DNA from: Escherichia phage NHEP1
Sequence record: PQ511146.1
Direction: 5' to 3' (one strand)
Length of the DNA stretch: 64,000 bases
The stretch's first letter is position 1; every line of letters starts with the position of its first letter. This document shows positions 37,061 through 37,177 of this stretch, in pieces. A model generated the notes under the pieces. That model was not told the origin of the DNA. It was given only the letters and a program-made list of their open reading frames with translations, and did not search any database. Made by a program: the position numbers and the translations under genes.

Positions 37061-37177
37061 ATGTCTACAGGTATTTATAAAATTTGCAAGTGTGGTTGTC
37101 ATTGCAATCTTCGTTGGTGTAAGGCACTGGACGATTTTATTTGGCATTGTCCTAAATGCGATGCGGAGTACGTATGA
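37061..37177 (+). CDS. 38-aa Cys-rich zinc-ribbon micro-protein (unannotated)
   Basis: Own translation MSTGIYKICKCGCHCNLRWCKALDDFIWHCPKCDAEYV; AGGAGG RBS; stop overlaps nrdG ATG (ATGA at 37174-37177). Confidence 0.45.
   Translation: MSTGIYKICKCGCHCNLRWCKALDDFIWHCPKCDAEYV

Follow-up and report, generated by a model that had tools for sequence, protein, structure and literature searches.

Results

Organization of the nrdD-nrdG locus

The stretch examined here (the window, 64,000 nucleotides in all) is part of an rV5-like phage of the genus Vequintavirus, and carries a very short open reading frame, the micro-ORF, on the plus strand at positions 37061-37177, between the genes of the class III (anaerobic) ribonucleotide reductase (RNR) system, nrdD and nrdG. 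The 1 kb around it is 96-97% identical to the corresponding DNA of Escherichia phages YP-6, ECP26 and FV3. Read from the sequence, the micro-ORF consists of 38 codons and a stop (ATG at 37061-37063, TGA at 37175-37177) and is preceded by a Shine-Dalgarno sequence, AGGAGG (37049-37054, plus strand), located 6 nt 5' of the ATG; an SD-like AGGAG or GAGGA is found 5' of the micro-ORF in all lineages. Its product, MSTGIYKICKCGCHCNLRWCKALDDFIWHCPKCDAEYV, is a Cys7 zinc-ribbon-like micro-protein of the family phrog_20137, with 38 amino acids, of which seven are Cys (18% of residues), a mass of 4.5 kDa and a pI of about 7.6.

The 5' neighbour, nrdD (34874-36997, plus strand; stop TGA at 36995-36997), encodes the class III RNR catalytic subunit and is intact, with matches to PF13597 (E 3e-161), Gly_radical and ATP-cone. 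A sigma-70-like promoter begins 4 nt past its stop (37001-37030, plus strand) and consists of TTGACA, an 18-nt spacer and CATATT with a preceding TG (extended -10). It agrees with the consensus at 10 of 12 positions plus the TG, and from this consensus match we infer that it is active. The promoter is kept in the FV3-, JES2013-, Murica- and rV5-type relatives; typing phage 14 and an uncultured sister lineage (lineage 2) have a GC-rich hairpin in its place.

On the 3' side, nrdG (37174-37647, plus strand) encodes the radical SAM activase of the anaerobic RNR (PF13353, E 5e-43; phrog_626). Its ATG (37174-37176) overlaps the micro-ORF stop in an ATGA (37174-37177, plus strand), and its Shine-Dalgarno sequence, GGAG (37165-37168, plus strand), lies 5 nt 5' of that ATG, inside codons 35-36 (Ala-Glu) of the micro-ORF. 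The ATGA junction is kept in window-type and lineage-2 loci, and it reads GTGA in L007. The MNI- N-terminus that follows from a start at 37174 (MNIVGY...) is common to all lineages; an in-frame ATG at 37156 was considered as the nrdG start and rejected, as the extension 5' of MNI- has stops in relatives. Directly 3' of nrdG, a perfect consensus sigma-70 promoter (TTGACA, 18 nt, TATAAT; 37651-37680, plus strand) forms the downstream boundary of the micro-ORF/nrdG unit, and the rV5 record has its promoter P118 at the corresponding site.

An earlier, sequence-only reading of this DNA had placed between nrdD and nrdG a Cys-rich ORF with a strong AGGAGG and an ATGA stop/start overlap, all of which is confirmed to the exact coordinate. 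The translational coupling to nrdG that it also proposed is supported in the window by the ATGA and the embedded GGAG, which suggest coupling in vivo. Four-nucleotide overlaps are, however, commonplace in the window (grx/nrdD, 37823/37820, 41659/41656 and 44396/44393), so that coupling alone says little about function.

Annotation of the micro-ORF in public records

The same reading had called the micro-ORF unannotated, which is wrong for the public data. The micro-protein matches the phrog_20137 family HMM over its full length (residues 1-38 on profile positions 1-38 of 38; E 6.3e-30), a 54-aa variant, P0007, also matches this family (E 8e-21), and many GenBank and RefSeq records list the gene as a CDS, examples being JES2013 gp108 (YP_008530353), YP-6 WDS62018 and, in UniProt, A0A9E7SGM6 of phage A51.2. 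These phrog_20137, GenBank, RefSeq and UniProt entries are the same family at the same genomic position and differ from the window's gene in nothing apart from their labels. The product is 100% identical in phages YP-6, FV3 and EPFV3, and tblastn located the peptide in about 121 phage records, 120 of which cover at least 80% of it.

The usual label in these records is 'hypothetical protein', and several (FV3, Murica, typing phage 14 and ACG-C91) have no annotation of the ORF. Some label the micro-protein 'ribonucleotide reductase' (PHROGs and some RefSeq records) or 'putative anaerobic ribonucleoside-triphosphate reductase'; the micro-protein has no Pfam RNR match, and BLASTP against the window NrdD gave an E of 0.9. 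Judged by sequence homology, the RNR labels are unsupported and look borrowed from the adjoining genes. In the original rV5 record, gp109 is an ORF that overlaps the micro-ORF in a different frame; we rejected this frame (ORF 37029-37226 of the window), which has stops in four relatives. Literature searches returned no functional or expression data on the micro-ORF, and no known small accessory protein of NrdG.

The micro-ORF is conserved as a coding sequence

Frame and selection were analyzed in 13 distinct DNA versions of the micro-ORF. The micro-ORF frame is uninterrupted in each of them; four have stops in the gp109 frame, and all have stops in the third frame. The product occurs in lengths of 36, 38, 41, 53 and 54 aa, and all the differences are in-frame indels. 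Over a 28-codon core, the variable columns at codon positions 1, 2 and 3 number 11, 4 and 21, respectively. When compared with lineage 2 (L006, L008 and L014), the core has a dN of 0.06 at saturated synonymous sites (pS 0.70-0.95), and the whole micro-ORF has a dN of 0.165; for the same pair of lineages, the glycyl-radical exon of NrdD has a dN of 0.12, the remainder of NrdD 0.24 and NrdG 0.46. By these distances, the micro-protein core is at least as constrained as the neighbouring catalytic enzyme. The informative comparisons gave omega values of 0.03-0.10. A value of 0.41 between the window and rV5, with about five substitutions behind it, was treated as noise.

A total of 21-23 residues are invariant, namely the seven Cys, G12, N16-L17-R18-W19, K21, L23-D24-D25, I27-W28, P31 and E36-Y37. 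Both His vary, H14 being replaced by R, S, K or E and H29 by Y. The Cys residues follow the pattern C-x(1,2)-C-G-C-x-C-N-L-R-W-C-x9-C-P-x-C. Conservation of the frame and of the Cys spacing in relatives, which the sequence-only reading had set as a check, is borne out: the frame is unbroken in 13 of 13, the seven Cys are invariant, and the spacing varies only between CxC and CxxC at the first knuckle. Its suggestion that the ORF might be a remnant is rejected on the omega of 0.03-0.10 and on the finding of no larger protein with this domain among 1.84 billion cluster representatives. These sequence patterns indicate that the micro-ORF is a genuine gene under strong purifying selection.

Predicted fold and metal site

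In the 41-54-aa variants, the first Cys knuckle is CK[DH]C, a canonical CxxC, and the second is CP[KE]C; the 38-aa form of the window has CKC, by a one-residue deletion, as its first knuckle and CPKC as its second. The micro-protein thus has the two Cys-x-x-Cys pairs about 15-20 residues apart that define a zinc ribbon, with the first knuckle of the window form one residue shorter. AF2 models, which are of only moderate confidence, have strands at residues 16-20, 25-30 and 35-37 in the window protein (mean pLDDT 63) and at 30-36, 41-46 and 51-53 in the 54-aa variant (core pLDDT 75-81, mean 68). The topology predicted by AF2 is beta, knuckle, beta-hairpin, knuckle, beta, in a three-stranded antiparallel sheet.

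When the model was compared with the PDB using Foldseek, the top matches were all zinc ribbons (the N-terminal ribbon of the NUDIX protein 3cng, Rpb9 and ZifS), which superpose at 0.9-1.3 Å rmsd over 31-34 residues, with a probability of up to 0.99 but an E of at least 0.24 for this very short domain. The best match among viral models was the family itself, annotated as uncharacterised. Profile searches of the PDB and NCBIfam gave only sub-threshold zinc ribbons (PolD DP2, eL43 and LysW), which share W-x-CP-x-C-x-AEY; no Pfam family matched at E ≤1, and the best NCBIfam matches, L37ae (E 0.14) and PolD (E 0.2), are far below the cut-off. Rubredoxin was rejected: Pfam gives no match at E ≤1, the residue after the second knuckle is D, G or N and not an invariant G, and the micro-protein is shorter than any rubredoxin. 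The ferredoxin-like auxiliary-cluster domain of glycyl-radical activases was also rejected, with the C-x2-C-x2-C-x3-C(P) motif absent and no Fer4 Pfam match. Among the PADLOC-DB HMMs for anti-phage defence and counter-defence, there was no match at E ≤10.

Taken with the seven invariant Cys, the predicted topology and the structural matches make the metal-binding zinc ribbon of the sequence-only reading a reasonable description, and the micro-protein is probably metal-binding and zinc-ribbon-like. In the model, a Cys4 Zn site would most likely bring together C9 and C11 of the first knuckle with C30 and C33 of CPKC. The predicted strand pairing would put C13 and C15 beside this site and C20 at the far end of the hairpin, where these three residues could serve a second metal, a redox function or contact with a partner.

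The model resembles the classical zinc ribbons (the Rpb9/TFIIS type, NUDIX 3cng and the Thermus small zinc-finger protein ZifS, 8yoz), in which two Cys knuckles likewise flank a beta-hairpin that is followed by a third strand, and it has a C-terminal W-x-C-P-x-C-x-A-E-Y in common with the PolD DP2 ribbon. It differs from them in having three extra invariant Cys (C13, C15 and C20) and, in the 38-aa form, a CxC first knuckle; it is also a stand-alone protein of 38 aa and not a domain, with no significant sequence or fold E-value to link it to them. A comparable ribbon is encoded in the same locus, about 130 nt upstream, where the C-terminus of NrdD forms a Zn(Cys)4 site of the type CxxC...CPxC, but that ribbon is part of a 707-aa enzyme and the two show no detectable similarity (BLASTP E 0.9). 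The very small phage Cys4 zinc proteins P2 Ogr and P4 Delta, which bind host RNA polymerase, are about 72 aa long and have another Cys spacing. They offer a precedent for a mode of action; no similarity of the micro-protein to them was detected, as it matches no Pfam family at E ≤1.

The family is small and restricted to phages

The query for the homologous-protein search was the 38-aa peptide together with five upstream codons. An exhaustive HMM search of the 1.84 billion cluster representatives, with a profile built without the ACG-C91 row, returned two clusters only, both of them the micro-protein family itself, and the micro-ORF is absent from the 185,579 bacterial and archaeal genomes scanned. 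Metagenome matches were all to Vequintavirus-like phages, bar one: L039 (44% identity), considered as a distant relative, proved spurious, an off-frame CGCRCNLRW within a high-GC bacterial ORF. Across these searches, the family is very small and phage-restricted, comprising the genus Vequintavirus, one uncultured sister lineage and one Vectrevirus. Lineage 2, and a further lineage, lineage 3, had no close match in the phage collection.

Linkage of the micro-ORF to nrdG

In the roughly 120 Vequintavirus records and in lineage 2, the micro-ORF always stands directly behind nrdD and upstream of some nrdG. This constant place is compatible with a functional tie to the anaerobic RNR, yet it represents a single arrangement passed on by vertical descent. 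Two lineages, whose NrdG proteins are just 53-57% identical, have the micro-ORF coupled to nrdG through ATGA or GTGA. In rV5, L036, L037 and L040, the intact micro-ORF ends in TAA and one or two small ORFs precede nrdG; the spacer holds a 34-aa basic ORF, joined in rV5 by a 78-aa ORF, before nrdG. The nrdG allele at these loci is 55% identical to that of the window, compared with 97% for NrdD in the same comparison; therefore, the nrdG module has been exchanged and the micro-ORF retained. In rV5 itself, the GGAG is lost (GCAGAG) and the micro-ORF is uncoupled, yet the Ala-Glu-Tyr is retained. The nrdD-nrdG region in relatives is also a hot spot for endonuclease-type insertions.

Lineage 3 (L019 and L021) has a gap of 46 nt between nrdD and nrdG and no micro-ORF, with NrdD 83% and NrdG 65-67% identical to those of the window, and no micro-ORF was found at nine more distant phage nrdG loci examined. 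The micro-ORF and nrdG do not co-occur wherever either is found: nrdG stands without the micro-ORF in lineage 3 and at the nine loci, the micro-ORF stands without nrdG in ACG-C91, and the two are separated in the rV5-type phages. The idea that the micro-protein is an accessory of the anaerobic RNR activase, put forward in the sequence-only reading, is not supported, in view of the uncoupling in rV5-type phages, the absence from lineage 3 and the other nrdG loci, and the ACG-C91 copy without RNR genes. We also examined the C-terminal 'SCGC' tail of NrdD, which does not co-vary with the micro-ORF; lineage 2 has the micro-ORF and an NrdD ending in KHFH or KHLN.

A copy next to a DNA ligase gene

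A copy of 36 aa that retains all seven Cys occurs in the podophage ACG-C91 (Vectrevirus, 43.7 kb); it is unannotated there and is closest to the 38-aa Vequintavirus form (86% nucleotide identity). This copy lies between a DUF3310 'nucleotide kinase' gene and an ATP-dependent DNA ligase gene, with a GGAG and an ATGA overlap with the ligase, in a genome in which no NrdD, NrdG or NrdB was found. In the sister podophages, the same slot is empty (LL11) or holds an unrelated 38-aa CxxC...CxxC ORF (SHAK7163) or a 56-aa non-Cys ORF (K1E). All inserts in the slot share the same boundaries, starting precisely at the position of the upstream ATG and finishing with ...ATGAATAT. By sequence comparison, the micro-ORF has been independently acquired only once, and there no RNR gene adjoins it. 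ACG-C91 is the only non-RNR context, and a single genome. Its host, E. coli, has its own NrdDG, on which the micro-protein could act.

The SHAK7163 micro-ORF, in the kinase-ligase slot of Vectrevirus-like phages, has the same size and the same slot and ATGA ligase coupling as the ACG-C91 copy, and it, too, encodes a mini-protein with two Cys knuckles, of the Cys4 type. It has no sequence similarity to the micro-protein, four Cys against seven, and an acidic tail. Its own weak matches are to several PHROGs, the best being phrog_13972 (E 3e-4).

Discussion

Taking the comparisons together, we think it likely that the micro-ORF is the gene of an autonomous, portable Cys7 zinc-ribbon micro-protein, real and constrained, that is not a dedicated NrdG subunit and owes its position to tight packing. 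In the window, it heads a unit of two genes, with the putative promoter directly after the nrdD stop and a strong Shine-Dalgarno sequence for its translation. The nrdG Shine-Dalgarno sequence and start lie within the final codons of the micro-ORF, and ribosomes finishing the micro-ORF may therefore reinitiate on nrdG. The micro-protein itself would act on its own, as a small binding or regulatory protein produced alongside the products of the nucleotide and DNA-metabolism genes in the early to middle phase of infection. Its place before nrdG would reflect the inheritance of a tightly packed start-to-start cassette, the same cassette having apparently moved before a DNA ligase gene in another phage.

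The principal alternative is a dedicated accessory of the anaerobic RNR, which would bind the NrdG or NrdD of phage or host and contribute to forming the glycyl radical, either by providing or stabilising a metal or Fe-S site or by passing on electrons or thiols, and whose coupling would ensure co-production with NrdG. Several observations fit such a role: the micro-ORF lies between nrdD and nrdG in every Vequintavirus record matched (about 120) and in lineage 2, it persists behind nrdD where the nrdG allele has been exchanged, it is coupled through ATGA or GTGA in two lineages with NrdG proteins 53-57% identical, its seven invariant Cys adjoin the gene of a radical-SAM Fe-S enzyme, and ACG-C91 infects E. 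coli, which is established to have its own NrdDG. We nevertheless regard this role as rather unlikely. The micro-ORF is uncoupled and separated from nrdG in the rV5-type phages and L040, absent from lineage 3, where NrdD and NrdG are related, and from nine other phage nrdD-nrdG loci, and present in ACG-C91 without RNR genes, a single independent acquisition away from any RNR gene. The micro-protein has no similarity to the NrdD, rubredoxin or ferredoxin families, and it would need to serve NrdG alleles that are 55% identical; to our knowledge, moreover, the NrdDG of E. coli and T4 function without such a partner, which we count against it. If true, this reading would extend a well-studied enzyme system by a new component. 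A more specific proposal, which we consider quite improbable, is that the Cys7 micro-protein acts in trans as a metal, Fe-S or thiol cofactor protein for glycyl-radical activation, binding the activase or the C-terminal Zn/glycyl-radical domain of NrdD, of phage or host, and boosting the anaerobic dNTP supply in the gut. Such a trans-acting cofactor would account for the micro-ORF staying behind nrdD through exchanges of the nrdG allele, and ACG-C91, lacking RNR genes, could benefit from it via the host NrdDG; if true, a class III RNR system would for the first time be known to have a small accessory subunit.

The remaining explanations deny the peptide or the gene a role of its own. The ATGA overlap and the nrdG Shine-Dalgarno sequence embedded in the micro-ORF are what would be seen in a leader or upstream ORF that delivers ribosomes to nrdG by coupling or regulation, the peptide being irrelevant, and the MFE fold does put the nrdG start region in a hairpin, but shuffled sequences fold just as well (z = -0.3). 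We reject a leader of this kind, as very improbable indeed, because strong purifying selection acts on the amino acids (omega 0.03-0.10, seven Cys invariant) and the ORF is retained where the downstream Shine-Dalgarno sequence and the coupling are lost, the rV5-type phages keeping an intact ORF that terminates in TAA with no coupling to anything, along with AEY despite the loss of GGAG. The same purifying selection and the conservation of the frame make it hardly credible that the micro-ORF is a chance ORF or the decaying remnant of a larger gene, such as a homing-endonuclease zinc finger or a duplicated NrdD zinc ribbon, even though the region attracts endonuclease-type insertions in relatives and NrdD has its own C-terminal CxxC...CxxC ribbon. 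The micro-protein has no similarity to NrdD (E 0.9), and no larger protein with the domain exists among the 1.84 billion representatives; therefore, it is not a detectable remnant. It is just as hard to believe in a non-coding regulatory RNA or an intrinsic terminator, for which the Murica record gives a 'terminator' at the equivalent of about 37111-37134: our scan finds no terminator-like site inside the micro-ORF, the fold has a z-score of -0.3, and the substitutions are distributed as in coding DNA.

Phages commonly carry small zinc-ribbon ORFs in their early and middle regions, and this gene is already known, being present in PHROGs, RefSeq and UniProt as an uncharacterised protein, so that as a finding it is modest. 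The RNR labels that it carries in some records lack support and should not be propagated. Read as an autonomous and portable gene, the micro-ORF behaves as a precise start-codon-to-start-codon cassette, moving between unrelated phages and standing before different enzymes, and would be a clear small example of the exchange of translationally coupled micro-genes. Beyond these two points, what the comparison adds to the public annotations is that the micro-ORF is among the most tightly constrained sequences of the locus, more so than the RNR enzymes on either side; it therefore does something of importance to these phages.

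Module exchange at the nrdG locus

Within the genus Vequintavirus, nrdG occurs as two alleles with a mutual identity of only 55% (window 37174-37647 compared with rV5, L033 1702-2175, and with a further comparison sequence, L040 2816-3289), whereas NrdD identity is 97%. Additional small ORFs accompany the rV5-type allele: a basic one of 34 aa and one of 78 aa (phrog_3249) that is wrongly named 'putative minor capsid protein'. The allele difference is a module exchange, and its left breakpoint is the end of the micro-ORF, the 38-codon zinc-ribbon-like ORF between nrdD and nrdG (window 37061-37177, + strand).

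The locus of E. coli O157 typing phage 14 (L005) is a mosaic, with a recombination breakpoint within or close to the micro-ORF. Here the micro-ORF (701-826) encodes 41 aa, with a CxxC knuckle and an N-terminus resembling that of lineage 2, the uncultured sister lineage that carries the micro-ORF; the GC hairpin upstream is likewise lineage-2-like, and the adjoining nrdG is of the window type (95% aa identity). In phage Alma (L032 2501-2686), a single-base frameshift downstream of Cys33 exchanges the terminal EYL for a 26-aa extension, giving a product of 61 aa in which every Cys is retained; this frameshift could reflect an error in sequencing or a variant that is tolerated.

A 65-aa ORF overlaps the micro-ORF in another frame (window 37029-37226) and was listed as gp109 in the original rV5 record. 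It is probably not a gene, judging from the sequences compared, because stop codons interrupt the frame in Murica, typing phage 14, L008 (lineage 2) and ACG-C91.

Insertions and C-terminal variation in nrdD

The window nrdD is unbroken and encodes 707 aa. In near relatives and in lineage 2 the gene is interrupted by inserted ORFs, HNH_3 together with unknown ORFs (YP-6, L002 1-1797; lineage 2, L006 6687-9936 and L008 1-2936; also L007 45-1259 and L020 801-1310), and free-standing endonuclease-like genes, namely a DUF723 protein and a 169-aa ORF, stand between nrdD and the micro-ORF in these relatives. The 3' region of nrdD is a hot spot for homing endonucleases or introns. In the window lineage, the C-terminus of NrdD reads HYGSCGC, with a Cys-Gly-Cys tail (window 36983-36994) that is absent from lineage 2, where the protein ends in KHFH or KHLN, and from lineage 3, where it ends in GRGDHCMLLDGD. 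Across the window lineage and lineages 2 and 3, the tail showed no co-variation with the micro-ORF.

A tiny-ORF swap site in podophages

In Vectrevirus and SP6-like podophages, the slot separating the DUF3310 'nucleotide kinase' gene from the DNA ligase gene is a site where tiny ORFs are swapped, and each insert reaches exactly from one start codon to the next. LL11 has no insert there (L017, about 397-399); ACG-C91 has the 7-Cys ORF, not annotated in that record (L003 4998-5108), SHAK7163 an unrelated 38-aa Cys4 ORF (L015 398-514) and K1E a 56-aa ORF (phrog_15259; L016, about 397-567).

Database labels

Eighteen 'Campylobacter phage' records (MG0656xx; stated host C. jejuni) contain the micro-ORF and share about 90% identity with E. 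coli rV5-like phages over the locus. The host label looks doubtful, and contamination or mislabelling is possible. Enzyme names are attached to several tiny zinc-ribbon ORFs in PHROG and RefSeq, with phrog_20137 called 'ribonucleotide reductase', phrog_13972 'DNA ligase' and a 73-aa ORF of Erwinia phage Yoloswag 'putative DNA ligase'. These names were apparently taken from neighbouring genes, and they risk being propagated further.

A second micro-gene unit

Immediately 3' of nrdG lies a second micro-gene unit (window 37651-38170). It comprises a sigma-70 promoter of perfect consensus (37651-37680), whose rV5 counterpart is annotated as P118, a 37-aa ORF rich in Lys and Glu (37710-37823; phrog_7670, E 5e-20) and a 116-aa ORF (37820-38170; phrog_7650), the GTG start of which is overlapped by the stop of the 37-aa ORF. 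This pair shows that coupled micro-ORFs are a repeated pattern in the NHEP1 genome.
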